Part shown: piece by piece, positions 4,988-30,687 of the stretch
Position numbering within the stretch: position 1 is the stretch's first letter
Layout of the letters: each line of letters starts with the position of its first letter
Source of the DNA: a virus
Length of the DNA stretch: 64,000 nt
Direction: 5' to 3' (one strand)
IMG/VR virus record: IMGVR_UViG_3300022821_000014
Coordinates: 26,968 to 90,967 of that record
Notes under the pieces: generated by a model
Database searches by the model: none
Told to the model about the DNA's origin: nothing
The model's input: only the letters and a program-made list of their open reading frames with translations
Position numbers and translations under genes: made by a program

Positions 4988-7900
4988 TTACCCGCACTTT
5001 GAATGCCCACAACCTTGGCAGGTAATACAACCTTCTTGGTAAGCTAGGTCTTTTGAACTACAGTTCGGACACTTTTTGAGTGAAGGTTTAGTACCATTCT
5101 CGATGTAATGTTTGAGTACCCGCATCAGACCCTTGGCCATTGTAAACATCTCATTGTCCTTGTCAGCACCCTTTTCAATTTGTTCGGTGACATATTGGAC
5201 AGGAGCACCATGCCGAAGTGCAAGTGAAACGGTCCTAGTGAACGCACTTTCTGTGGTGTTTGCGAAAACTGATGCAAGGTCCTTGATCACAAGCTCATTT
5301 TCACCTTCACCTGTGTACAGATTGTAAGTGCCATTTTTCTTGATCACACCCCTCTTGCGACTACGTGGAAGGTGGATGTGTTCCGAGCGGCCAGCGAAAA
5401 TCTCGTAAGGTTTATCATCGTAGATCCCTACAAAGAAGTTCCACTTCTCACCACGAACCTGCATATGGTAGATGTCACAAGGGAGTTGTCCAGGGCGCTT
5501 TGGAGCATGGTGATAGGCAAATTTGTCTGATGAACGAATTTCATCCTCCGACACTAATACACCTGTACGACACTTGTCACGATACACAGTAACTCCCTTG
5601 CAGCCCGTTTCCCATCCAGCCATGTAAATGTCTTTGATTGTATCTACTGTAGTATCTTCTGGCACGTTGGTAGTGTTGCTGATTGAGTGACAAACCCACT
5701 GTTGAGCAGCGGCCTGGGCCTTTACTTTGTTTAACCAGTTAATATCGTTCGAAGTGGCGCCGTGGTAAGGACTGTCCTTTGGATCAGACTTTCCAGTTAC
5801 TTCCATCCACTTCTTAAACCAGTGATGGTAAACCGTGTATTCCTGCCACTTGTCGCCCATGTCGTCAACAAAATCAACACGGGCATCATGATCTCCTGGG
5901 TTGATCTTTCGTCGGCGCTTGTAGGACAGCATGAACGCTGGTTCAATGCCGCTGGTAGTTTGAGTAAGAACTGAAACAGAACCAGCTGGAGCTGTTGTCG
6001 TGTTTGCGATGTTCCGTCGACCGTACTTTTGCCAGGATTTTTTCATTTCTGGATCAAGGTCCATGATGCGGTTGATAAAGGGGTGATCCTTCTCAAGCTC
6101 GTAATCATACACAGGGAAGGCACCACGCTCTTCAGCAAGTTTCACGCTAGAACGGTGTGAATTTAGTGCCAGATTCTTGTATATTTCGTTGATAAGCTCA
6201 ATCGACTCTGGGGACCCGTAGACAACATTCATCGCTGCAACGGCATCACCTACCGCTGTAAGTCCAAGTCCAGTCCGTCGCCCATTTTCAGCAGTTGTTC
6301 GAATCTTGTTCCATAGATCAGCCTCCATTTTCTTTACATCAGGAGGTTCTGGATCGGCATCGATTTTCGCCAGGATTCGATCAATAGCTTCCAGCTCAAG
6401 CTCAACCAGGTCGTCCATGAGGCGCTGTGAATCCTGTACAACATTTGCAAACTCTTCCCAGTCAAATGCAGCTTCGGCTGTAAACGGGTTCTTGACGAAT
6501 GTTACAGAATTGACAAGTAGCAGTCTACACGAATCATATGGTGAGAGAGTTATTTCTCCGCAATTATGTGCAAAGGTTCCCTTGAATGACTTTGTACCAT
6601 CTTGTTGCCCTGTTATACCAGTAATGATGCCAACTGTGTGGCTGTCATCTACTGTAATATTGTACACAGAGTGTGTGCCTTCAACCTCTTCAACTAAAAC
6701 AATCTTATGGTTGTACTCAATACCTGCATCGCAAACTTCACTGTAGCTTTTAAAGCCATGCTTTATTTTTTGACCCAGCCTAAATGGGACGTTTTCTTGT
6801 TTACAGGCAGTTTCCCACTCCTTGGCCAACGGCTTTCGTCCTAGCTCGTACTGCAAGGAACTCCAAATTTTAATCTGGTCTCGCATTCGAAGCTCAGCCT
6901 TTTCTTTTGCCTTACGGTTAATGGCCTTTGTTCGCTTCGCATTTATACTCTGATCAGAATTCACGTATTCAAGTGAACATGCATGTGTACAGAAAGAAAT
7001 TTCTCTTCTGTTGTGTTCAGTTACAAATGATGTTGCACAAGTTTCGCACTCTTTCTTTACCTGAACCGTATTGTCAGAAATAAACGCCTCATAACCTTGT
7101 CTGATCATCTCTTGTAGTGTTCTAACCAAACGTGGGTCTTTGTCAGTGTGTTCATAGCCCAAAGTACTGGCGCAAAGCATAGAAAGTTCAGCAGGGCTTC
7201 GGCCTAAGACCGCATGATGCATTTTAGAGAATGTCTGTGGCAACCCTTTATTCTTGGCAAAATCTTGCCATTCCTGGTGTGAGAACCTTCGGCCAAGATC
7301 CTGAGTAAAATTCAGTGCTTCTTTATAGATTTCCTTAGATTTTTTTCCGAGGAATTTACCGTTGTTTGAACCATTGTTATCATGCGTTGCATGAAATTGC
7401 TGATGTTCACGAAAAGTCATTATCTCAAGATTATCAGGATCATTATTGGTGCCATCATAATCTTTGTGATGTACAACCAACCCTCCTTTTACCCAGCCAT
7501 TTTGTTTCTCAGCTTGGTACTTTTCGGTCCACAACTTACCTTGAGTGGCTTCAGCTATGAGTCTATGTTCGTATCTCTTTTTAGGTTCTGCCGAGCGGGT
7601 CTCAGTTTTTACTTGGTAGTATTTATTACCAGACTTATTCATGCAGACAGGAGTCTTGCTGAATGAGGGCAGGCTATCGCCAGGCACTAGATCCCTAGCA
7701 TTCTTTGTTTGACCGTCCCTGAGAATCATTTTATGATTCGGAGTGACCCTAAGGGTCGTTCCATCATCAAGCGTTATTTTTAATAGCTTCTGATTGAGGT
7801 TTGTCAGGCGAGGGTTTCTTCCTGTTTTTATTTCAACATGACCGTTTTTTGGATTTACTGAGTACAGTAGGACATCTTTACCTTCATCTGCGAGCTGTTT

Positions 7901-8833
7901 AATTGAAACAGCATCTCTACCGTCAGCCAACGCAATTAGTGTATCACTAGAAAAACATGGGTTAGTTGATACTGTTCCGAATCCTACTGATTCGTAGGCG
8001 TCTGCTGGAGAGTATTTCTTAACTGTATCCCAGAACAGAAGTCCAGGCTCAGCTGATTCATGGGCTGACTCAATAATTTCGTGCCAAAGCTCTGCTGCAT
8101 CGACCCAGGCTTCGACCTTTGGGTCTACTTTTTGAGTGATGGGCCAGCGAAGCTGAACTTCTTGACCCTTCTTGACTGCATTCATAAACTCATCCGAAAG
8201 TCGAATGGAAATGTTGGCTCCAGTCACACGCTTGCGGTCACGTTTGATGTTGATAAACGTGCGAATTTCTGGGTGGTGTACTGAGATTGAGAGCATTAGT
8301 GCACCTCGACGCCCTCCTTGTCCTACTTCACGACAGGTGTTTGAAAAACGATCCATGAAAACAGCTATACCATCCGTAGTCCTTGCTGCATTTGCCGTTA
8401 GGAGACCTTGAGGTCGGATACTTGAGATGTCAAAGCCAACACCGCCTCGGCGCTTCATCAGCTGAGCCTGTTCTTGGTCTGTCTTAAGGATACCTCCGTA
8501 AGAATCATACGGCTCCTCAATCACAAAACAGTTGGATAGAGACATAACCTGATAAGGGTTTCCGACACCAGCCATCGGCGATCCTTGGGGGATTATGTAT
8601 TTGAAATCTTTGAGGTACTGGTAAATTGCCTCTTCGGACAGCCCGTTTTTAAACTTACCTTCAATTCTTGCAAACTCGCTTGCAAGCCTCCTGTGCATAT
8701 CTTCAGGAGTTGTTTCTTCTAAACCACCTCTTGGGTTGTTTATAGCATATTTTGTAATAAAAACATTGGCTGCTAGTTCATCGTTCTTGAAATATTTTAG
8801 TGATTGCTTATGTGCTTCTTCGAATGTTGCCAT
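4988..8833 (-). CDS. nrdJ: Class II (B12-dependent) ribonucleotide reductase with intein
   Basis: SNCFV, TNP|C-GE, RRTGLG, TAPAGSVS, TTSGIEP, GCKGVTVYR; C-terminal Zn ribbon. Confidence 0.93.
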   Translation of the reverse strand: MATFEEAHKQSLKYFKNDELAANVFITKYAINNPRGGLEETTPEDMHRRLASEFARIEGKFKNGLSEEAIYQYLKDFKYIIPQGSPMAGVGNPYQVMSLSNCFVIEEPYDSYGGILKTDQEQAQLMKRRGGVGFDISSIRPQGLLTANAARTTDGIAVFMDRFSNTCREVGQGGRRGALMLSISVHHPEIRTFINIKRDRKRVTGANISIRLSDEFMNAVKKGQEVQLRWPITQKVDPKVEAWVDAAELWHEIIESAHESAEPGLLFWDTVKKYSPADAYESVGFGTVSTNPCFSSDTLIALADGRDAVSIKQLADEGKDVLLYSVNPKNGHVEIKTGRNPRLTNLNQKLLKITLDDGTTLRVTPNHKMILRDGQTKNARDLVPGDSLPSFSKTPVCMNKSGNKYYQVKTETRSAEPKKRYEHRLIAEATQGKLWTEKYQAEKQNGWVKGGLVVHHKDYDGTNNDPDNLEIMTFREHQQFHATHDNNGSNNGKFLGKKSKEIYKEALNFTQDLGRRFSHQEWQDFAKNKGLPQTFSKMHHAVLGRSPAELSMLCASTLGYEHTDKDPRLVRTLQEMIRQGYEAFISDNTVQVKKECETCATSFVTEHNRREISFCTHACSLEYVNSDQSINAKRTKAINRKAKEKAELRMRDQIKIWSSLQYELGRKPLAKEWETACKQENVPFRLGQKIKHGFKSYSEVCDAGIEYNHKIVLVEEVEGTHSVYNITVDDSHTVGIITGITGQQDGTKSFKGTFAHNCGEITLSPYDSCRLLLVNSVTFVKNPFTAEAAFDWEEFANVVQDSQRLMDDLVELELEAIDRILAKIDADPEPPDVKKMEADLWNKIRTTAENGRRTGLGLTAVGDAVAAMNVVYGSPESIELINEIYKNLALNSHRSSVKLAEERGAFPVYDYELEKDHPFINRIMDLDPEMKKSWQKYGRRNIANTTTAPAGSVSVLTQTTSGIEPAFMLSYKRRRKINPGDHDARVDFVDDMGDKWQEYTVYHHWFKKWMEVTGKSDPKDSPYHGATSNDINWLNKVKAQAAAQQWVCHSISNTTNVPEDTTVDTIKDIYMAGWETGCKGVTVYRDKCRTGVLVSEDEIRSSDKFAYHHAPKRPGQLPCDIYHMQVRGEKWNFFVGIYDDKPYEIFAGRSEHIHLPRSRKRGVIKKNGTYNLYTGEGENELVIKDLASVFANTTESAFTRTVSLALRHGAPVQYVTEQIEKGADKDNEMFTMAKGLMRVLKHYIENGTKPSLKKCPNCSSKDLAYQEGCITCQGCGHSKCG
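6563..7957 (-). mobile_element. Cis intein (465 aa) with HNH homing endonuclease in nrdJ
   Basis: Starts CFSSDT after TNP; block B VTPNHKM; HHKDYDGTNNDPDNL; VYNITVDDSH...HN followed by +1 Cys (CGEI). Confidence 0.93.
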
Positions 8834-12961: not shown

Positions 12962-13422
12962 TTGTCTTGTTCCATGTCTAGAATGATAATAGGTGTATAG
13001 ATGCCTTCGTCGGTCACATAATACATTCCTCCTTCTACAATTGTCTTGTCAAAATAAACCCGAACGGTTTCCATCTCATCAACAACTGAGTCTTGAAAAT
13101 TCAATTCTCCATGTGTGTACTTACCTTTGTCTACAAGATTGTCGTATGCAAACTTTGCACGGAAGCAGAGAAGGTGTTCCAGGATCAAATGCGGTCCCCT
13201 AGAAGTTACAATAACTCCTTTGCCGCTGTTCTCACGAGAAATATTCCTAATCAATTCTGCCAAACCTTTGTTCCATTGAAATTTGTCAAAAAAGAACGGC
13301 GCTCCCGCTTTTATAGCTTCTTCTGGGGGAATTGGTTCGCTGGTGTCTTGATCAATATATACACCTGGCTTCTTCGACCAGAATTTCAATTTGCCCGACT
13401 TCTCTTTTAACTCGTACTCCAT
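12958..13422 (-). CDS. Hypothetical protein
   Basis: 154-aa ORF in operon with overlapping stop/start. Confidence 0.65.
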
Positions 13423-13438
13423 ACTACCTCTTCAACCA

Positions 13439-13846
13439 CTAGCCTATTATGACCAATTCAACATGTCCACTATCCTTAATCGACAGGAACAAACTTTCTG
13501 TTTTAAACTTGTCAATCTTATACAGTGGAATTTCTGTACCAGCTAGAATCAAGCTGCCAAAAACAACTTCGTCTGTGTTACAAGGACTAATCTCTGGTGG
13601 TCTAAAATTAATGAGAACTTCCATGATTACGCTAACCAAACTTTCAGGGTCGAGTGAGATCGCCTTGACAATTCCAAGCTCATCTTGTATTGACATTATT
13701 AGTGGCATGAGGGTATGATACCACTCGTATACACTGTACCGACCTGTACTCCCACTATTCCAGTCATCTGATAACACATCACCTGTTTTGGGGTCTACTA
13801 GCTTTCCTGGCAATCTTGACCAATATCTTCTGGTGGCGAGTTTCAC
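13439..13846 (-). CDS. Hypothetical protein
   Basis: 135-aa ORF coupled to recA-C stop. Confidence 0.6.
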   Translation of the reverse strand: MKLATRRYWSRLPGKLVDPKTGDVLSDDWNSGSTGRYSVYEWYHTLMPLIMSIQDELGIVKAISLDPESLVSVIMEVLINFRPPEISPCNTDEVVFGSLILAGTEIPLYKIDKFKTESLFLSIKDSGHVELVIIG

Positions 13847-14805
13847 TTTCCATGCGCCTTTAGTGCCTCAGCCTCTTCAACGGAATCCTTGTTTACACCC
13901 GCAAAAGTCAAATGTTCCTTTGCATCACGTTGCATGACCAATGCATCGGTATATAGTGCGTCAACGTACTCTTGGTAAGCAGGGTTGTAAAGAACCCTGT
14001 TGAAATTAGGCTTGTAGAATTTTTCCTCAACAAGAATTTCACCCGTACTCTGGTCAGTCACAGTGAATGTTTTCCAAGCAGCTGTGCCAGCGACGAGGAT
14101 CGATTTCCCGTTATGAACTACACCGTAAGCATCCTTATCTTGTTTGATAACTTCCGTACAATGTGCACGAAACAAGTCAAAAACTTCTTCATGTTCAACA
14201 ACGCCGACGCCGAAGATAATCTGGAACTCACAAGTGCGGAATGGCCGAGCTACACGGTTCTTGATCGTCTTGGCTTTCACCTTAATGCCAATGACGTTCC
14301 CTGCATTATCTTTAATTTGCTGCTGCCCAGTAGAAGAAATACGAACACGGACTGAACTTGCGTAAGGGATAGCCATCCCACCAGGTGTTGTAGTGTTGTG
14401 GTTAATAAACCCTTCAGCAATATAGTTGTGAGTGTCTTCCACTTCGCAATCAACAACTTGTATGGGGTGTTGTACTTGTTCAGCACCAATGTAGTCTTCA
14501 AGACGAATATACTCGCCATCAACAAAGATCTTATGGTCTTTGGTGCCGTGAAGAGTATTTGCTTGGTAGTGCTCGTCTGCATTTTGTTTGACGACAAACG
14601 TTTTCAGTGGCTTCCAAACTTCCTGCTTGGATTCGTGATCATATGAGAGGATTTCATATTTTTCATGTTCTATATTGTAGATTTCTGGCGTATTTAGATC
14701 TTCTATACCTATACGTTTTGCCAATTCACGAAATGTGATTTCCTCTTCCACGAACTGACGTTCATGCCTTGTTTCAAGATTGTGTTTTTTTATTTCGGTT
14801 TCCAT
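13843..14805 (-). CDS. recA: RecA C-terminal half fused to a long C-intein (IntC about 14395-14805)
   Basis: Block B GTKDHKIF, block F VVDCEVEDTHNY, block G INHN then TTTPGGMAIPYASSVRVR...KNRVARPFR; start at 14805 is inferred. Confidence 0.88.
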   Translation of the reverse strand: METEIKKHNLETRHERQFVEEEITFRELAKRIGIEDLNTPEIYNIEHEKYEILSYDHESKQEVWKPLKTFVVKQNADEHYQANTLHGTKDHKIFVDGEYIRLEDYIGAEQVQHPIQVVDCEVEDTHNYIAEGFINHNTTTPGGMAIPYASSVRVRISSTGQQQIKDNAGNVIGIKVKAKTIKNRVARPFRTCEFQIIFGVGVVEHEEVFDLFRAHCTEVIKQDKDAYGVVHNGKSILVAGTAAWKTFTVTDQSTGEILVEEKFYKPNFNRVLYNPAYQEYVDALYTDALVMQRDAKEHLTFAGVNKDSVEEAEALKAHGK

Positions 14806-15619
14806 AAGTTTCTGTCTTTCGGTGGCAAGCTTCACACAATGTTCTTCCGTTTGAGGTTCTCCAAAGAGGTTCATATCTTTTTGCCTCTTCAACAGATTTG
14901 ATATTACCTTCTTCTAAAAGCAAACAAAAAGGATAAATGTGATCTACGTGCAATTTTTCTGTTCTATCGCATCTGATGCATTTGTGCTCATCACGTTTCA
15001 GAGCACTCTGCCTCCATTTTCGATATGCGTAACTTTTCCTAATCAAACTAGCGGTTTTCGTTAAACCACTTTTCCAATTTGGATTTTTTTCTTTTCTTTT
15101 TGGGTTTGCTTTATTGTATCTTATTATCCAAGAACGCAATTTTTTCCTGTGTTCCTCGGTCGGCTGATATCTTGGACTTGGTATAGCTTTTATTGGATAA
15201 AACTGGCTAAGCTTGTCTATAATTCGTTTTGTTTTTCTTAGTTTGAGATTTAGTTTATTGGCTATGTGCCCGTAAGGTACTTCCGCCTGGCACAATGCAA
15301 TTATTTGTTCATAATCTTCTGGTGATAAATCCTGGGGCAGGTATTTGATCTGCTTTTTAGCGCACTGATCCCGAACATATCTGCGATAAACCCTATCGGA
15401 AATTCCTAGTTTAGTCTTAATCCACCTGGGCGGGACGAACCTTTTATCCCAATAACCGTGAAGTTATTTAACTTGTTCCTCCGAAAGGATAACCTTCTGA
15501 GCTTCTCCAATGTTTCTTCGCCGCTCTTTCGAAAAGACCTTTCCCGTATTCGCTGCTGCGATTTTCCGCCTTGTTTCTTTTGAGTGTGCATACCTTTTTT
15601 TGTTCTTTGCTGGTTTCAT
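14774..15619 (-). pseudogene. Free-standing NUMOD3 + HNH homing endonuclease with an in-frame TAA at 15464-15466
   Basis: HSKETRRKI NUMOD3 repeats; the same frame continues past the TAA into RDEHKCIRC...HVDHI...NGRTLCEACH. Confidence 0.78.
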
Positions 15620-15623
15620 GCAG

Positions 15624-16358
15624 CTAAACATACTTGCGAATTCGAATCCTAGTGTCTGGAGTAACGCAAGGGTCTCCAAACATGACACCGATCTTCTGAC
15701 GTTGTTGGTTAATGAGAAGGAAGAGGACATTTTGGTTACCAATAATATTGACGATTTTACGCATGCCTTTACCTAACACACGGGCTTGGAGGCCAATCGT
15801 GTTAGAGTCATAATCGCCCTCAAGCTCAGCTTTAGGAGACGAGGCGGCAATAGAATCCCACACGATTGTTACTGGAACATTCTTTTGCATAGCACGAGCC
15901 TTAAGGATCGTTGATTCAGCAATTTTGAAAATTTCTTCCGTGCACGCTGTCTGACAAAAGATGAAACGGTTACTTACGTCGATACCAATTGCACTAAGGT
16001 TATCAAGGCTAGTGGCGTTTTCCGTATCTATGTAAACAACTATTCCTCCCATCTTCTGGGTCGCCTTAGAGGCTTCGAAAGCAATGTGTGATTTGCCGCT
16101 TGATGTTGGCCCCTGAATTTCTACAATCCTACCTTCTGGAAAGCCCCCGACTGCTTGGTTTGCAATGATCGCATCAAGCTGTCGTGAGCCTGTGCTAATC
16201 CATCGTTTGATATTTGTTGGGGCGTCATCGGTAGAAAGATTGAAAGCGATATTCTCGCCGTTCTCCTTGTTCAACTGCTTAATAAGGTCAGTTGTAAAGT
16301 CATCACCCATGTCATCTGCACTGGCGGTGTCTGTTGTTGTTTTTTTCTTTTTGGCCAC
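15624..16358 (-). CDS. recA: RecA N-terminal half ending in a 14-aa N-intein (15627-15668)
   Basis: ISTGS, GRIVEIQGPTSSGKS, VWDSIAA, INQQRQKIGVMFGDP|CVTPDTRIRIRKYV*. Confidence 0.92.
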   Translation of the reverse strand: MAKKKKTTTDTASADDMGDDFTTDLIKQLNKENGENIAFNLSTDDAPTNIKRWISTGSRQLDAIIANQAVGGFPEGRIVEIQGPTSSGKSHIAFEASKATQKMGGIVVYIDTENATSLDNLSAIGIDVSNRFIFCQTACTEEIFKIAESTILKARAMQKNVPVTIVWDSIAASSPKAELEGDYDSNTIGLQARVLGKGMRKIVNIIGNQNVLFLLINQQRQKIGVMFGDPCVTPDTRIRIRKYV

Positions 16359-16416
16359 GGTACCTCTTGTCTTTAATTGTAGCTGTGCCCATTAATTGAT
16401 TAAACAGGCTTAGACG

Positions 16417-16442
16417 AAAAAAGGCCAGCGTTAGCTGGCCTT
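16417..16442 (-). terminator. Intrinsic terminator after the SSB gene
   Basis: GGCCAGC-TAAC-GCTGGCC-TTTTTT on the minus strand. Confidence 0.8.
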
Positions 16443-16465
16443 CTTCGTTTTAAAGGAGCGGGGAC

Positions 16466-17344
16466 TTAGAAAACAGTACCAACGTCATCATCCAAGTCGG
16501 CGAATGCATCTTCAATGCTCTTCACCGTGTTGGAGTGTTCCTTATCTCGATCGGCACCCTTAGAAGCATTGTGATCCTTGCCTGTGCCCAGTTCCTTGCT
16601 CTCGGTATCCTCCTCACCGTCATCTCCAGCTGTTTTAGCAAGGAAGTTCTCAACCGTTTGCTGAAGCTGCTCAGGGTTACGAACCTGACCCTTGAAGTAA
16701 GCCTCAAGGTCTGGTACGGATGCGACAAGAGCGTCGACGTCCTTTTTTCCCTTGGCGAGCCTTGTGGGCTTGCGGCGAGGAGTCAGGTTGTAGTTCTTGA
16801 CTTTCCACTTGCCGAACATCTTACCAGAGTCTTCTACGTCAAGAGTGAAATCAAATCCGTTCTCAGCATCCATCATGTCCTCATCGGCATAATCAGGGTG
16901 AGCAAGAATAGAGTAAATGTCCTTGAGGATCTTGGAGTTCAACTCCCAAATCTGAACGCCCCGATCCTCTTCTCCACGCACAACAATAGGTGCATAAAAG
17001 CGATCCTTTGGACGCAGGTTGTTCATAAGACGCCAGGTCTCACGTGTATTCTCTTTACGAAGCTCATTGATAAGGTCGAAGATTGGGTCTTCTAGCTGAT
17101 ACTGAGCGGGGGATACGAAACGGCGCTCAGAAAGCTCCTTGTTGTCGTAATAAGACACTTCCTCGAAAGGTTGACCCTGTCGATCGGTGTAGGGCATGAA
17201 ACGAATTTCATAACTGTTTTTACTGCCATCCGCAAGTAGTGAAGGCTTGAACCAGGTGAGTTTCACTCGGTCACTTTTGCCCCCGTTGCGGCCACCAGAA
17301 AGGTCAGCGATTTTTTGTTTGATTGCATCAAGATTATATGCCAT
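16466..17344 (-). CDS. Single-stranded DNA-binding protein (T4 gp32-like)
   Basis: IRFMP, DPI, R-F-APIVVRGEEDRGVQIW, GFDF; acidic tail DAFADLDDD. Confidence 0.82.
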   Translation of the reverse strand: MAYNLDAIKQKIADLSGGRNGGKSDRVKLTWFKPSLLADGSKNSYEIRFMPYTDRQGQPFEEVSYYDNKELSERRFVSPAQYQLEDPIFDLINELRKENTRETWRLMNNLRPKDRFYAPIVVRGEEDRGVQIWELNSKILKDIYSILAHPDYADEDMMDAENGFDFTLDVEDSGKMFGKWKVKNYNLTPRRKPTRLAKGKKDVDALVASVPDLEAYFKGQVRNPEQLQQTVENFLAKTAGDDGEEDTESKELGTGKDHNASKGADRDKEHSNTVKSIEDAFADLDDDVGTVF

Positions 17345-17379: not shown

Positions 17380-18186
17380 TTATTTGGTTGCGCAAACATC
17401 ATGCTTGCGTGTCATGTAGAATTTACCCATGGTTTTTGGGTAAACATACTTTTTAATTTTCGTGCTAAGATTATTCCCACTGTATTTCAACTCATAACAT
17501 TGGGCAGTCTTTATTTTGTACGGTCTTTTATTGGGAATGCCAGTATTCTCGGTTAACTGGCGTTGTAACTCTTTCAAGAAATCTTGTGAGGCAGACGCAA
17601 TTTGCAGTCCTAATGTTGGCGTAACACCTTCTCTGTTTCTAATAAACCAGCAACCATCTCCATCAATAAACCCTCTGATATAATGTGGGTAAAAAGATTC
17701 TTTCAGATTGGGCCAGGACAAATTGTGAGTTTTTTGTGGTGTCACCCCATAACAAGATAAATCAGACTTTAATCTTCTGCTGCTGACTTCAAAAGTCGAA
17801 TAAGGTCCGTACGTTCTGACCTTATTTTCTGCCTCTAATTCTTCTCTAAGGTATTCTAACAAATATGCATCTTCATTTTTCAGTGTCAATTTAATTGCAT
17901 TGCGTTTCGTTGAAACACATCCATCGGCTGCCAACAATCCTAGAAAGTAAGCTTTGGAAGGTGTGTTAATATGTGAAAAATATTTTTGATTGACCTTGTT
18001 GGACCTGGGTCCAGGTGAACGTAATTTACGGTTGTGTTTTGTCAGTAACCATCTGACCCAGGATAAACTCTTGTTGAAATATTTGGCTGTCTTAGACACA
18101 CCTTCGACAAGGTATTTTTTATACACCTCATCAGGATTATAAGCCATTCGTTGTCTGTTCCATTCCTTTCTATAAGTATGGTTCAT
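17380..18186 (-). CDS. Free-standing double-motif LAGLIDADG homing endonuclease (start uncertain)
   Basis: KAYFLGLLAADGC and YIRGFIDGDGC motifs; N-terminal HTH-like segment. Confidence 0.88.
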   Translation of the reverse strand: MNHTYRKEWNRQRMAYNPDEVYKKYLVEGVSKTAKYFNKSLSWVRWLLTKHNRKLRSPGPRSNKVNQKYFSHINTPSKAYFLGLLAADGCVSTKRNAIKLTLKNEDAYLLEYLREELEAENKVRTYGPYSTFEVSSRRLKSDLSCYGVTPQKTHNLSWPNLKESFYPHYIRGFIDGDGCWFIRNREGVTPTLGLQIASASQDFLKELQRQLTENTGIPNKRPYKIKTAQCYELKYSGNNLSTKIKKYVYPKTMGKFYMTRKHDVCATK

Positions 18187-18292
18187 TGGGTCGAAATTGA
18201 CCAATTCTAAGCGTCCGAGATGAAGATTTATCTTCAATGATTTCAAGTACTTACGCACTGCAAGCAATTTATTTTGGCCATGTTTTCGAGTG

Positions 18293-25542: not shown

Positions 25543-27873
25543 TTAGTCATCTTTACGTTCGATCACATCCAACTTGGTAAAATGTGTTGAAAGGCCGAAA
25601 TCTGACTTTTTAAATCTAGCTAACACAAGTGTATTGCTAGGAATCACTGCATCACGCTTAGGGTTGAATCCCCAGATAAAACACCCCTGCTCTGAGCCAG
25701 ACTCTCCATAGACTTTCATTCTCAGATATGGTTTTCCATTCCTTGTTTTGGCTACTACACTTCGTTTTACAACTGCCCAATAATAACTGTTTTCACTGCG
25801 CCATTCATCAACAGACCCAATACCATTTTCTTCGAAGTAGGCCTTGATCTCCTTTGTGATGATAAGGTTGATGTTCACTGAACCTGCAAGCGTCTGACTG
25901 TGCTCGATCTTCTCATCAATCGTCCAGTCCTTAAGCCCCTGAGCCTCCTTAATAAGGTCTTCCAGGATTTCTGGTGGACGTGGTTCTTTTTTCCGTGAAC
26001 AGGCTCTTTTTAGATTATCAGCTTGGTCGACAAGCACATAATGCATTTGGCGATAGTTCTTGAACATCTTGTCTTCACCGACAAGGTCCATAGACTCAAA
26101 AGCTTCAAGCTTTATAAGAGTTGAAAGGGCTCTCTTGTTGAATTTGCTGTGCCTCCATGTCTGATCCTGATTCCATAGAAGCTCCTCAACCGTTTTGTAG
26201 GGTCGGAATTCTTGAATTTCCCTTAGTGTGGGCATGCCAACATGCTTCAGTGCCTGGAAACTTGGAATTAGCACTCCGTTTTTGACCTGATAATCTGCCT
26301 CAGACTCGTTGATGTCAGGCTTCCCAACCTTGTAACCAAGACCCTTAGCTTCACCAAGGGCGATTGAGATAGGCGCTTCTTTGCCTGTAACGTGTCCCTT
26401 ATCAGTTGCACAGTAATCGATATAACTGGCCATCCACTCATCTGGATGATAGGTGAGAAGCCAAGCACACTGATATGAAGTGATGGCATAGGCGGTAGCG
26501 TGGCTCTTATTGAACGAGTATGCTACGAACTCTTCCATCTCGTCAAAAATCTTGTAGCTGGTAATCAGCTGCGTGCCGTGTACTTCTTTGCATTTGATGG
26601 CGAAATCTTCACGCATCTGCTTTCTCTGTGCGTCAGCTGCACCCTTGTTAGATTTGTCCTTCTTTGTGAAGGATTTACGAACCATGTCGGTCTCTTCGAG
26701 AGGAACCCCAGCCATCTGATGGTAGATGAGCTGTAGTTGCTCCTGGAAAACAATTAGTCCACAGGTGACATCCAGCACCTCTTCGAGTAACTCATGTTTG
26801 TAGATGATGCTCTCAGGGTTTTTGCGGTTGTTCAAATACAACTTGTCAGCTCCGATGGCTAGAGGTCCAGGGCGGAAAATCGAAGTTGCTGTTGCGATAT
26901 CAAGGATGGTCCTTGGCTTCATCTTCTTAATGAATTTCTGTACGGGAGGCTGGACGAACTGAAAAACTCCAGCCCAGTTGCCGTTCCAATACACATGTTT
27001 GTAGACTTTGATGTCATCCATCTGATTGTTGTCTGGATGAAGGTTCGTATAGAACCAGTCCTGCACATTTCGGAATGTTGGGTATTTGGTACCCTGTTTC
27101 TTTAGAATACGTCGAATTGTGTTCTCAAATATCCTAAGCGTACCAAGCCCAAGAATATCAAACTTTAGAAGCCCGAAACCTTCAAGGTGACGAAAATTCA
27201 ATCCCTCTTGCCAAGGCGTTTGAAGAACCCCACCGCTCTTGATGAGCGGCATGTGCTTATTGGGAGTCTCCGTAATGATGACGCCGCCAGCATGTCGTGA
27301 GACGTTTCTCATTTGCTTGAACAACACCTTGATGTTGTTTTCAAGGTCAGGGAACTCAACCATAAGCTCCTGAAAAGTCTTGGACTTCTCAGCTGCCTCG
27401 TCAAATGTCAATGTCCACAGCTGTCGGTCGAAGCCTGGCTTCTTCTTCGCCTCACCCAATGCCTCACTTTCAATTTTACGTGTGTATTTATTGACCTCTT
27501 CGAATGGCACTCCATTCAAGCGACACAAGTCCTTAACCAATGAGCGCATTTGAAGTTGGTTGAAGTTAGAAATCGGGATGACGTTCTCTTCACCAAAGTG
27601 TTCAGCAATAAGCTGAACTGCTTTCTCACGGTCTGAGAAATCAGAGTCAATATCGGGAAAGCCTTTCTTGAAGCGTGTGAGGAAACGCTCAAAAAGTAGG
27701 CCATACCTGATCGGGTCTAGCTGAGTAATGTTCAGAACATAAGCAAGCAAAGACCCGCCAGCAGAATTGTGTACTCCTAATCCTTCAATGTTATATGAAT
27801 GAGATTCACTGACGGTGAGATCATGAACCTTGCCTGTGTAATGGAATAGAGTCTTTTTTGTTAGCTTTGCCAA
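25543..27873 (-). CDS. dnaE: DNA polymerase III alpha C-terminal part with a 36-aa C-intein (27766-27873)
   Basis: VHDLTVSESHSY...VHN|SAGGSLLAY; PDIDSDF, SRHAGG, KFDILGL, GVFQF, FQEQ, YSFNKSHA. Confidence 0.95.
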   Translation of the reverse strand: MAKLTKKTLFHYTGKVHDLTVSESHSYNIEGLGVHNSAGGSLLAYVLNITQLDPIRYGLLFERFLTRFKKGFPDIDSDFSDREKAVQLIAEHFGEENVIPISNFNQLQMRSLVKDLCRLNGVPFEEVNKYTRKIESEALGEAKKKPGFDRQLWTLTFDEAAEKSKTFQELMVEFPDLENNIKVLFKQMRNVSRHAGGVIITETPNKHMPLIKSGGVLQTPWQEGLNFRHLEGFGLLKFDILGLGTLRIFENTIRRILKKQGTKYPTFRNVQDWFYTNLHPDNNQMDDIKVYKHVYWNGNWAGVFQFVQPPVQKFIKKMKPRTILDIATATSIFRPGPLAIGADKLYLNNRKNPESIIYKHELLEEVLDVTCGLIVFQEQLQLIYHQMAGVPLEETDMVRKSFTKKDKSNKGAADAQRKQMREDFAIKCKEVHGTQLITSYKIFDEMEEFVAYSFNKSHATAYAITSYQCAWLLTYHPDEWMASYIDYCATDKGHVTGKEAPISIALGEAKGLGYKVGKPDINESEADYQVKNGVLIPSFQALKHVGMPTLREIQEFRPYKTVEELLWNQDQTWRHSKFNKRALSTLIKLEAFESMDLVGEDKMFKNYRQMHYVLVDQADNLKRACSRKKEPRPPEILEDLIKEAQGLKDWTIDEKIEHSQTLAGSVNINLIITKEIKAYFEENGIGSVDEWRSENSYYWAVVKRSVVAKTRNGKPYLRMKVYGESGSEQGCFIWGFNPKRDAVIPSNTLVLARFKKSDFGLSTHFTKLDVIERKDD

Positions 27874-28820: not shown

Positions 28821-28948
28821 TTATGAAACCAATACATGGATTAGAAACATTGGCAAAGGGCAAAAATGCAAGTTTAAACCATCTGCTTTTTGTCCCAAAA
28901 CAAACCAACCCACAAATCACGTGGTTCAAATTTCACTGCCAGCTTCAT
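28821..28948 (-). pseudogene. Small frameshifted passenger ORF inside the fractured dnaE locus
   Basis: MKLAVKFEPRDLWVGLFWDKK, then in the -1 frame ADGLNLHFCPLPMFLIHVLVS*; ATGA-coupled to the dnaE-N stop. Confidence 0.45.
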
Positions 28949-30687
28949 ACTTCAACGACAACATCTTCTTCGGTGAGGTGTTGAGCTTCGACCCAGCTTC
29001 TATTTGAAGTTAGAATCTCATGGTTCTTGGTACATCTAATCACCTTACCGTTGTCGAGTTCAAGTTCAATACATTCTTCATCGATGTCATATGTCATAGT
29101 GTTTTCCACAGATTGTTCATTACCAAATGCGTCTATTACTTTATCGCTGATGATGATATCTTGAATTTTGGCATGCAACCCATCCGCCATTTTCACACGA
29201 GACCCTGGGAGAAAGCATCCTCGGGCGTTTCCAATCAGCATGTGTTCACTTACAATCTCCATAATTTTGGAGTACGTGAGGAAATACTTTGAGAAGTTCA
29301 GATGCTTGATGACCTTCAGCTCGTGCTTGAGTCGGGCAATGTACTCCTGGTTTTCAGCAAACCCTCTGCGTTTTATACCTGCAATTGCCTGACGCTTCAG
29401 TTCCTGAAAAGCAACCTGGTCTTCGGTCGCCTCGGTCCCAACCTTATCATAGATTGTTTCCAACTCAAACTTATCTACCATGCGACTGATCGATGGTAGT
29501 TTTACAGAACGATCTGGCGTGATATCATCAATCTGGTCGTGAGCAATTGTGTGTGTTCGTTCAATAGCCTCGCACACCAGATCGTCATCATAGAAATCCC
29601 AGCCCTTGCCTTCCTTATACCTGTGGTATGATTCCCAAACCTGCTCGGCATTCTTTGGATAAAGTTCACATTTCAACTCTTCCATCTTCTGCGGGAGTTT
29701 GGAAGTATCCAAGCCTTGGCCTCTGGAAGACCACGCCATCATCTTGTAAATCTCACGCTGCTTCCAGTGGTCTGGGTGAGAGTAGTGTGCATCCACTGTT
29801 ACAACAAGCTTAGTATTTGTACGCTTACTCGCTTCAATGAGATGTTGGTTTACAAGATGCTGCGCTCCCAGGGAGTTGAACTGAAGTTCGAGATAATAAT
29901 TCTCTTCACCAAGAGCCCACTTGAAGCCATCAACAACCTTTTTCAATTCCTGTTGAATCTCATCAAAGTGCAGGTCATTGGGCTCCCAGTTCTCGAAGTT
30001 TGGGTCTTTCTGTCGGTCAAATACCTTCCGTGCGGGTACTCCACCTACACATGCCGTTAGAGCAATGATGTTACCCTTTGCGTACTTCTTGAGCATCTCC
30101 AGGTCCATCCTGGGGTAGCGATAAAAGCCATCAACGTAAGACTCAGAAACAAGCTGGTTAAGTGCTGTAAGGCCCTCACGGTTTTTTGGAAGTAAAACAA
30201 GGTGATTTCTCTGGTTCAGAGGGTCGCCATATTTATTGCCCTTCGTTTCTTCCTCGTTTTCTACTACCGTGCCCGCAACCGTATCTTCCAAATCAAGTTT
30301 TGTTGAGGCATATGCATCCCCAAGAAGCTCTAGATGTCTCTTGAGCTGGTCCTTAGCATCGACATTACCCTTCTTTACTAGCTTCTCTAGACGCTTGATT
30401 TCTCTACGGCCATCATAAATTTCCTGCCATCGTGGAAGTGAATCAATGAAGTAAGCTTCAATGCCTGGCAGTGCCTTGAAGTTCACGCCCTTCTTTACCA
30501 GTTTTTCATGGTGAAAAAACTGGTGTGAATAACCATTCATGTTGCCATGGTCTGTAAGCGCCAGGGCATCCATTCCGTTATCAATGGCATAATTGATATG
30601 ATCTTGCGGCATGCCGATTGCATCACCAATCGAAAACGTACTGTGGGAATGCAATCCCACAAACTTCTTAGGGTATTTCTTATTCAT
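28945..30687 (-). CDS. dnaE: DNA polymerase III alpha N-terminal (PHP) part with a 90-aa N-intein (28948-29217)
   Basis: LHSHSTFS, ALTDHG, HLVLL, DAHY; GNARG|CFLPGS...CTKNHEIL...VEV*. Confidence 0.95.
   Translation of the reverse strand: MNKKYPKKFVGLHSHSTFSIGDAIGMPQDHINYAIDNGMDALALTDHGNMNGYSHQFFHHEKLVKKGVNFKALPGIEAYFIDSLPRWQEIYDGRREIKRLEKLVKKGNVDAKDQLKRHLELLGDAYASTKLDLEDTVAGTVVENEEETKGNKYGDPLNQRNHLVLLPKNREGLTALNQLVSESYVDGFYRYPRMDLEMLKKYAKGNIIALTACVGGVPARKVFDRQKDPNFENWEPNDLHFDEIQQELKKVVDGFKWALGEENYYLELQFNSLGAQHLVNQHLIEASKRTNTKLVVTVDAHYSHPDHWKQREIYKMMAWSSRGQGLDTSKLPQKMEELKCELYPKNAEQVWESYHRYKEGKGWDFYDDDLVCEAIERTHTIAHDQIDDITPDRSVKLPSISRMVDKFELETIYDKVGTEATEDQVAFQELKRQAIAGIKRRGFAENQEYIARLKHELKVIKHLNFSKYFLTYSKIMEIVSEHMLIGNARGCFLPGSRVKMADGLHAKIQDIIISDKVIDAFGNEQSVENTMTYDIDEECIELELDNGKVIRCTKNHEILTSNRSWVEAQHLTEEDVVVEV

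Follow-up and report, generated by a model that had tools for sequence, protein, structure and literature searches.

A phage recA gene very probably fractured by a split intein with a 14-residue N-terminal fragment

Introduction

How can a recA gene that is broken within a DNA-binding loop, with a second gene filling the break, still give rise to a complete recombinase? The question is raised by a locus in a 64,000-nucleotide stretch of viral DNA (hereafter the window; positions 26,968 to 90,967 of IMG/VR virus record IMGVR_UViG_3300022821_000014), in which the two halves of recA lie in different reading frames on either side of a homing endonuclease gene. We consider it very probable that this recA is fractured by a split intein whose N-terminal fragment (IntN) consists of 14 residues, and whose C-terminal fragment (IntC) is fused to the second half of RecA; the two products, if expressed, are most likely ligated after translation. 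This reading is supported by a junction that is exact to the residue, by catalytic residues without variation among relatives, by contiguous relatives in which a short link spans the break, by the HINT fold, and by a model of the complex of both fragments. An original prediction, made from the sequence alone, had proposed an atypically split intein with a 14-residue IntN, and the same lines of evidence, including residues invariant in 26 IntC and 25 IntN relatives, uphold it. Its open reading frames (ORFs), coordinates and letters proved correct by translation and by matches to Pfam RecA in both halves.

Fracture of the recA gene

All features of the locus are located on the minus strand, in three different reading frames (Table 1). 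The ORF at 15624-16358 encodes 244 residues, matches positions 6-205 of the Pfam RecA profile as well as the PHROG annotation 'UvsX-like recombinase', and ends with FGDP/CVTPDTRIRIRKYV followed by TAG; here and below, a slash marks the border between extein and intein or, in intein-less proteins, the corresponding position. In another frame, the ORF at 13843-14892 runs through GTKDH to INHN/TTTPGG and continues into the C-terminus of RecA (Pfam RecA 199-261). The two exteins can be compared with an intein-less homologue of 412 residues (P0029). The N-extein (1-230) aligns gap-free to its residues 1-229 with 89% identity, the C-extein (1-183) aligns to residues 230-412 with 78% identity, and the two abut at 229/230, GDP/TTTPGG, with no residue lost or gained. 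Dozens of further homologues of 400-430 residues contain GDP-TTTPGG uninterrupted. Removal of the insertion restores the uninterrupted host protein exactly, as is characteristic of class 1 inteins: since the junction is exact, taking out 14 + ~137 residues leaves a normal RecA of 413 residues. That joining would restore the L2 loop as GDP-TTTPGG had been predicted, and the abutment on P0029 bears this out.

Inteins, and also an endonuclease encoded within an intron, are on record as targeting the L2 DNA-binding loop of RecA (PMC3239194). One might therefore think of a removal at the RNA level, namely of a group I intron carrying the endonuclease gene, as in recA genes of Bacillus phages; intron-borne endonucleases are known to target the sequence that codes for L2 (PMC3239194, PMC2677866). 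We regard an intron as barely credible at the present locus. The endonuclease frame takes up the whole gap, and the flanks encode conserved intein blocks, a constraint at the protein level that an intron would not need; furthermore, an Rfam scan of positions 13400-16800 at E up to 1 matched no family, group I introns included. The original prediction, which saw no room for an intron core, was right on this point.

Table 1. Features of the fractured recA locus, with positions in the window.
Feature	Position	Strand	Description
recA N-extein	15669..16358	-	residues 1-230; GTG start; end ...GVMFGDP; Pfam RecA E 3e-43; 89% identity to P0029 1-229
IntN	15627..15668	-	14 residues, CVTPDTRIRIRKYV; intein block A (Cys1 + strand 2)
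TAG stop ending the RecA-N/IntN polypeptide	15624..15626	-	26 independent protein clusters have an equivalent stop 14-24 residues past Cys1
Homing endonuclease gene, 5' part	15467..15619	-	51 codons; Pfam NUMOD3; ATG 4 nt past the recA-N stop; collinear with intact homologues of 265-289 residues
In-frame TAA within the endonuclease frame	15464..15466	-	homologues show Q, K, A or R there
Homing endonuclease gene, 3' part	14774..15463	-	HNH domain (Pfam HNH, PHROG HNH endonuclease families); overlaps the IntC leader; listed ORF from TTG 15295
IntC	14395..14874	-	leader + HINT core; ends INHN; start ATG 14874 (160 residues) or ATG 14805 (137 residues)
recA C-extein	13843..14394	-	183 residues from Thr+1 (TTTPGG...) + stop; Pfam RecA 199-261; 78% identity to P0029 230-412

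Intein motifs and fold

The catalytic set of class 1 inteins (Cys or Ser at position 1, T-x-x-H, block F, His-Asn, and Cys, Ser or Thr at +1) is present in the window as C1, GTKDH, VVDCEVEDTH and INHN/T. Conservation among relatives points to the same residues. In 26 proteins that combine IntC with the C-terminal half of RecA (39-69% identical to the window's), T111/H114 of block B, D142/T148 of block F, H159-N160 and T162 are all invariant, and so are Cys1, P4 and R11 of the tail in 25 N-terminal halves. The proposed use of Thr as the +1 nucleophile agrees with these alignments: the Thr after the terminal His-Asn is found in each of the 26 relatives.

Other contigs possess contiguous mini-inteins of 133-139 residues at the same site, in which only 2-3 residues bridge the two parts – for instance ...IRKRL-KQQ-EVTFEEL... 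in P0028. The fold was tested on one contiguous relative (L027, 40% identity to the window's IntC) rather than on the window's own two chains. Its AlphaFold2 model has a pLDDT of 94.7 and contains strands at residues 7-12 and 15-20, followed by a helix. In a Foldseek comparison of this model with the PDB, the leading matches are all inteins (Pho RadA with a TM score of 0.81), and the relative thus displays the horseshoe fold of HINT domains. The element is a class 1 mini-intein with a HINT domain, and it belongs to a divergent lineage.

Split site and modelled docking of the two fragments

An intein counts as S1-split if it is broken immediately behind strand 2 and has an IntN shorter than about 40 residues (PMC13014065); this atypical position is used by VidaL and PolB16 (PMC13014065). 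The window's break maps to the hairpin between strands 7-12 and 15-20 of the L027 model, that is, after strand 2, and with an IntN of 14 residues the intein is S1-split. A canonical split at the endonuclease-domain site was considered as well and is rejected. The two intein parts reside on separate ORFs, each fused to one extein, and the same holds for 26 clusters of N-terminal halves and for many loci.

With three Arg, one Lys and one Asp, the IntN is basic, and its partner strand at the start of IntC, EEEITF, is acidic, which is how the original prediction had described the pair. A structure prediction of the complex, proposed there as a check, was carried out with residues 24-172 of P0001 (IntC) and residues 205-244 of the N-terminal half, in three runs and with three controls. 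The ipSAE was 0.80 in 3/3 runs against 0.01 for the best control, a score that may partly reflect likeness to the solved split-intein complexes that exist. In the calibration of the tool, 58/80 solved complexes and 2/110 mismatched pairs reached the mark. The pLDDT of the partner was at least 60, and at least 82% of the contacts were common to the runs. In the modelled interface, residues 228-244 of the N-terminal half (GDP and the IntN) face IntC residues 40-49, 71-76, 107-115, 138-142 and 158-161, packing on the EEEITF and YEILS strands, on blocks B and F, and on the HN/T end. The model supports a predicted association of IntN and IntC.

Homing endonuclease gene and its relatives

The original prediction also had a homing endonuclease gene in the third frame filling the gap. 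The gene is indeed there, with a NUMOD3 motif and an HNH domain between 15619 and 14774; what was overlooked is the in-frame TAA at 15464-15466. From its ATG at 15619 to 14774 the frame is collinear over the full length with the intact HNH endonucleases of five relatives (L001, L005, L006, L007, L008; 265-289 residues), and it has no ribosome-binding site of its own. The TAA is the lone stop, at a position occupied by Q, K, A or R in the five intact homologues, and because of it the listed endonuclease ORF comprises only the 3' part of 173 residues. Judged by its reading frame, the gene is probably decaying, or at best yields an N-terminally truncated product, and the endonuclease is probably functional no longer. 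The locus nevertheless has the layout of a fractured gene with a free-standing homing endonuclease between the two halves, on the same strand, albeit with that gene interrupted.

Taken together, the window and its relatives represent several steps of a homing cycle. The endonuclease gene is intact in some relatives, broken by a nonsense codon in the window, and fused to IntC or deleted in other relatives, while still others have a contiguous intein. The fusion is seen in P0011 (567 residues) and in L031/L032:4092-5978, where the endonuclease ORF has lost its stop and reads in frame into IntC and the C-terminal half of RecA. The deletion is seen in L004:4914-4995, with ~85 nt of the 3' end left between the IntN stop and the IntC start; the IntC of L004 is identical to that of L005, where the endonuclease gene persists. 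Some relatives (L004, L014, L028) are split without any endonuclease gene. Others (L012, L022, L024) contain a DUF559/Vsr-like endonuclease at the same break. In a tree of 120 columns, well-supported groups combine split with contiguous forms (for example L024 with P0064, P0030 with P0028), so that the state would have switched more than once; the tree is small, the element recombines, and caution is in order. This mixture on the tree and the presence of two unrelated endonuclease families, HNH and DUF559/Vsr-like, at one S1 break suggest repeated gain or loss at one loop.

These relatives also bear on the question whether the window's layout is an artefact of assembly or sequencing. On that view the real gene would encode an uninterrupted intein with the endonuclease domain inside it, and errors would account for the stops and frame changes; the lone stop in the endonuclease frame could in principle be one. 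We consider such an artefact highly improbable. Many independent metagenomic contigs and protein clusters show the same layout in three frames, with a stop 14-24 residues past Cys1 and an IntC that has its own start, and the relatives that are split without an endonuclease gene do not fit an artefact either. Moreover, where a contiguous intein has an endonuclease domain, this is located at the canonical site rather than behind strand 2 (PMC13014065).

Distribution of the family and length of the N-terminal fragment

The N-terminal halves were surveyed among the best 120 relatives, clustered at 90% identity. For the 26 clusters with the window's insertion site (site A, GDP/TTTPGG), the tail lengths of the IntN are 14 residues in 9/26, 15 in 2/26, 16 in 11/26 and 18-24 in 4/26. 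A second site is located six residues upstream, KIG/TMFGDP, and harbors related S1-split inteins (P0112, P0141, P0184; L078, L025/L026, L045) as well as contiguous ones (L038, L046, L066). The IntN tails at this site measure 13 residues (L078, CVAPGTKITFRRS), 14 residues (L025/26) or 15-19 residues. Both sites are occupied in L012:2642-5900, where one recA contains a contiguous intein at KIG/TMYGDPS and, at a distance of six residues, an S1-split intein with a 15-residue IntN at GDPS/TTPGG. The DUF559/Vsr-like endonuclease gene of this contig lies within the break of the S1-split intein.

In an exhaustive search with IntC only, through 1.84 billion cluster representatives, 71 clusters at 50% identity were obtained, 38 at E up to 1e-10. 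The intein begins at protein residues 2-8 in roughly half of the 71 clusters, which means the same split. The element did not turn up in 50,697 deposited phage genomes, searched at both the nucleotide and the protein level, and thus in no cultured phage covered by these searches.

Natural IntN fragments of atypically split inteins range from 15 to 37 residues, and the shortest one characterised has 15 (PMC13014065, PMC10189870). The window's 14-residue IntN is marginally shorter than any of these, yet ordinary within its own family. The expectation that it would rank among the shortest natural fragments is therefore borne out against the literature but not as a rarity, with 14 residues in 9/26 clusters and 13 residues at the neighboring site.

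Weighing the evidence

Some observations weigh against the split-intein reading. One is the residue at -1, which in the window is Pro. Proline in this position is usually unfavourable and often slows the first splicing step. The residue before Cys1 is Pro in 21/36 clusters of the intein family, and this family may tolerate it unusually well.

Two more observations concern the assignment to known inteins. The match to Pfam Intein_splicing (PF14890) is weak (E 0.045, 14 bits, below the gathering cut-off of 35.8), and sequence and profile searches of the PDB give marginal intein matches. In the intein profile search that had been proposed as a check, the C-terminal 38 residues – and these only – match PF14890, at a score under the gathering threshold. 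Because the family is divergent, membership rests on motifs and fold.

Fourth, the start of IntC is ambiguous. The original prediction let IntC begin with the Met at 14805 (137 residues), for which we see only a weak purine run upstream; ATG 14874 may be the start instead (160 residues). The latter has the better ribosome-binding site, GAAGAGG 9 nt before the codon – the same motif precedes recA-N and a neighboring gene – and was chosen by the gene caller (P0001). The proposed Met is thus one of two candidates. In relatives, leaders of 2-40 residues precede the EEEITF strand, and the leader is outside the modelled interface. The choice of start matters for the design of constructs and not for the split-intein reading.

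Finally, the source record, a virus contig of 90,967 bp, represents ~20% of a genome according to CheckV. It contains a single recA, and another, intact copy could exist elsewhere in the genome.

What is more challenging is the possibility of a splicing-dead relic, in which the pieces are kept without splicing and RecA is either non-functional or a non-covalent two-piece protein. A precedent has been reported: in phage Aeh1, an HNH endonuclease gene divides NrdA although no intein is present, and the protein works in two pieces (PMC2677866). The decaying endonuclease gene indicates an element past its mobile phase, and Pro at -1 would fit a loss of splicing. We nevertheless hold a relic to be unlikely, given that the catalytic residues are all intact and invariant across relatives and that both exteins are free of lesions and 78-89% identical to intein-less RecA. 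In addition, the broken L2 loop binds DNA and would hardly accommodate ~150 extra residues left unspliced, and the docking model separates the pair (0.80) from its controls (0.01). A split intein, recurring in this layout on many independent contigs, remains the explanation that we prefer.

Genomic setting

The host replicon of the split recA is a large phage with many mobile elements. Genes of the window specify a large terminase, a DnaB-like helicase, a single-stranded-DNA-binding protein (SSB) adjoining recA, a DnaE-type polymerase in two ORFs, and the large subunit of ribonucleotide reductase (RNR) with an internal HNH segment. The RNR subunit has 1281 residues (4988-8833, minus strand); HNH endonuclease matches at residues 386-631 are flanked by RNR parts, and the segment probably represents a contiguous intein that includes an HNH domain. 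The two polymerase ORFs (25543-27873 and 28945-30687, minus strand) cover consecutive stretches, 38-406 and 407-1034, of one PHROG profile. Directly upstream of the SSB gene lies a free-standing endonuclease of 295 residues with LAGLIDADG-like motifs (17380-18267, minus strand; phrog_4645). The interval between the SSB gene and the start of recA-N contains, at 16421-16442, a hairpin of 9 bp that is rich in GC and has T-runs on both strands. This hairpin probably serves as the terminator of the SSB gene, so that recA-N may have a promoter of its own. A scan for promoters and terminators inside the recA locus gave matches at chance level.

Proposed mechanism and significance

According to our model, a class 1 mini-intein occupies the RecA L2 loop at GDP/TTTPGG and would itself have been broken at its S1 hairpin by a free-standing NUMOD3/HNH endonuclease gene. 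Two polypeptides would be made, RecA(1-230)-IntN(14) and IntC(~137-160)-RecA(231-413). The basic IntN strand would dock on the acidic EEEITF strand and on the YEILS strand of IntC and complete the HINT fold; Cys1, the Thr and His of block B, the terminal His-Asn and Thr+1 would then perform protein trans-splicing, releasing a RecA of 413 residues with a native L2 loop. The endonuclease gene presumably drove the spread of the element in former times, and with this gene now interrupted by a nonsense codon and probably in decay, the split would have become fixed and splicing obligatory.

More tentatively, we propose – as a possibility that falls somewhat short of being probable – that the window's intein is active and has the shortest natural IntN characterised (14 residues, Cys1/Thr+1, with Pro at -1 tolerated), and that two unrelated endonuclease families have recurrently used the S1 hairpin to land or to exit, while the intein changed repeatedly from one state, contiguous or split, to the other. 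If this is true, the family would form a natural series in which the origin and fixation of split inteins can be studied. In protein semisynthesis, a short natural IntN is of value because such a peptide can be made chemically, and the family supplies many natural variants of 13-16 residues, with Cys1/Thr+1 and mostly Pro at -1, for screening. The locus would also add, if splicing is active, one more essential phage recombinase that relies on post-translational ligation. The layout as such is already known, and the family is a large metagenomic one; the known picture of split inteins is unchanged.

Comparison with known systems

VidaL (16-residue IntN; PDB 6vgv; PMC13014065) resembles the window's intein in being natural and cysteine-dependent, in its S1 split after strand 2, in its HINT fold, and in a very short IntN that is usable as a synthetic peptide. 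Its IntN is 16 residues long versus 14 in the window, and the structural comparison with the L027 family model gives a TM score of 0.53 at 15% identity (Foldseek rank 17). Sequence and profile searches of the PDB yielded no match between 6vgv and the window's intein at E up to 10, and thus no recognisable sequence kinship to the VidaL lineage; the two inteins are not closely related. 'VidaL UvsX' inteins from the same metagenome, which may or may not belong to the window's family, are reportedly listed by Thiel et al. (2014) and Neugebauer et al. (2017).

PolB16 OarG (PMC10189870) is likewise naturally S1-split, and its IntN of 15 residues is the shortest characterised. In contrast to the window's intein, it uses Ser1/Ser+1, is cysteine-independent, resides in a PolB polymerase and has an IntC of 168 residues; as a structural match (8cpo, rank 37) it is distant. 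AceL-TerL and GOS-TerL (IntN of 25 and 37 residues; PMC13014065) are also natural split inteins with a short IntN from phage-like metagenomic genes, but their break is at S2, behind helix 1, and they reside in the large terminase.

The Mycobacterium leprae RecA intein and other L2-loop elements use the same hot spot, the RecA L2 loop being on record as an insertion site of inteins (PMC3239194). The M. leprae intein is contiguous and bacterial, and the likeness noted is that of the loop.

In its layout the locus corresponds to the fractured genes of environmental phages described by Dassa et al. 2009 (PMC2677866): the 5' half with IntN, a free-standing homing endonuclease and IntC with the 3' half follow each other on one strand, in genes of phage replication or repair. 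Those loci are split, with one exception, at the canonical endonuclease-domain site and contain GIY-YIG or Vsr-like endonucleases (PMC2677866), whereas the window's intein is split after strand 2 and its endonuclease is of the HNH type. Vsr/DUF559-like genes do occur in the relatives of the window's intein.

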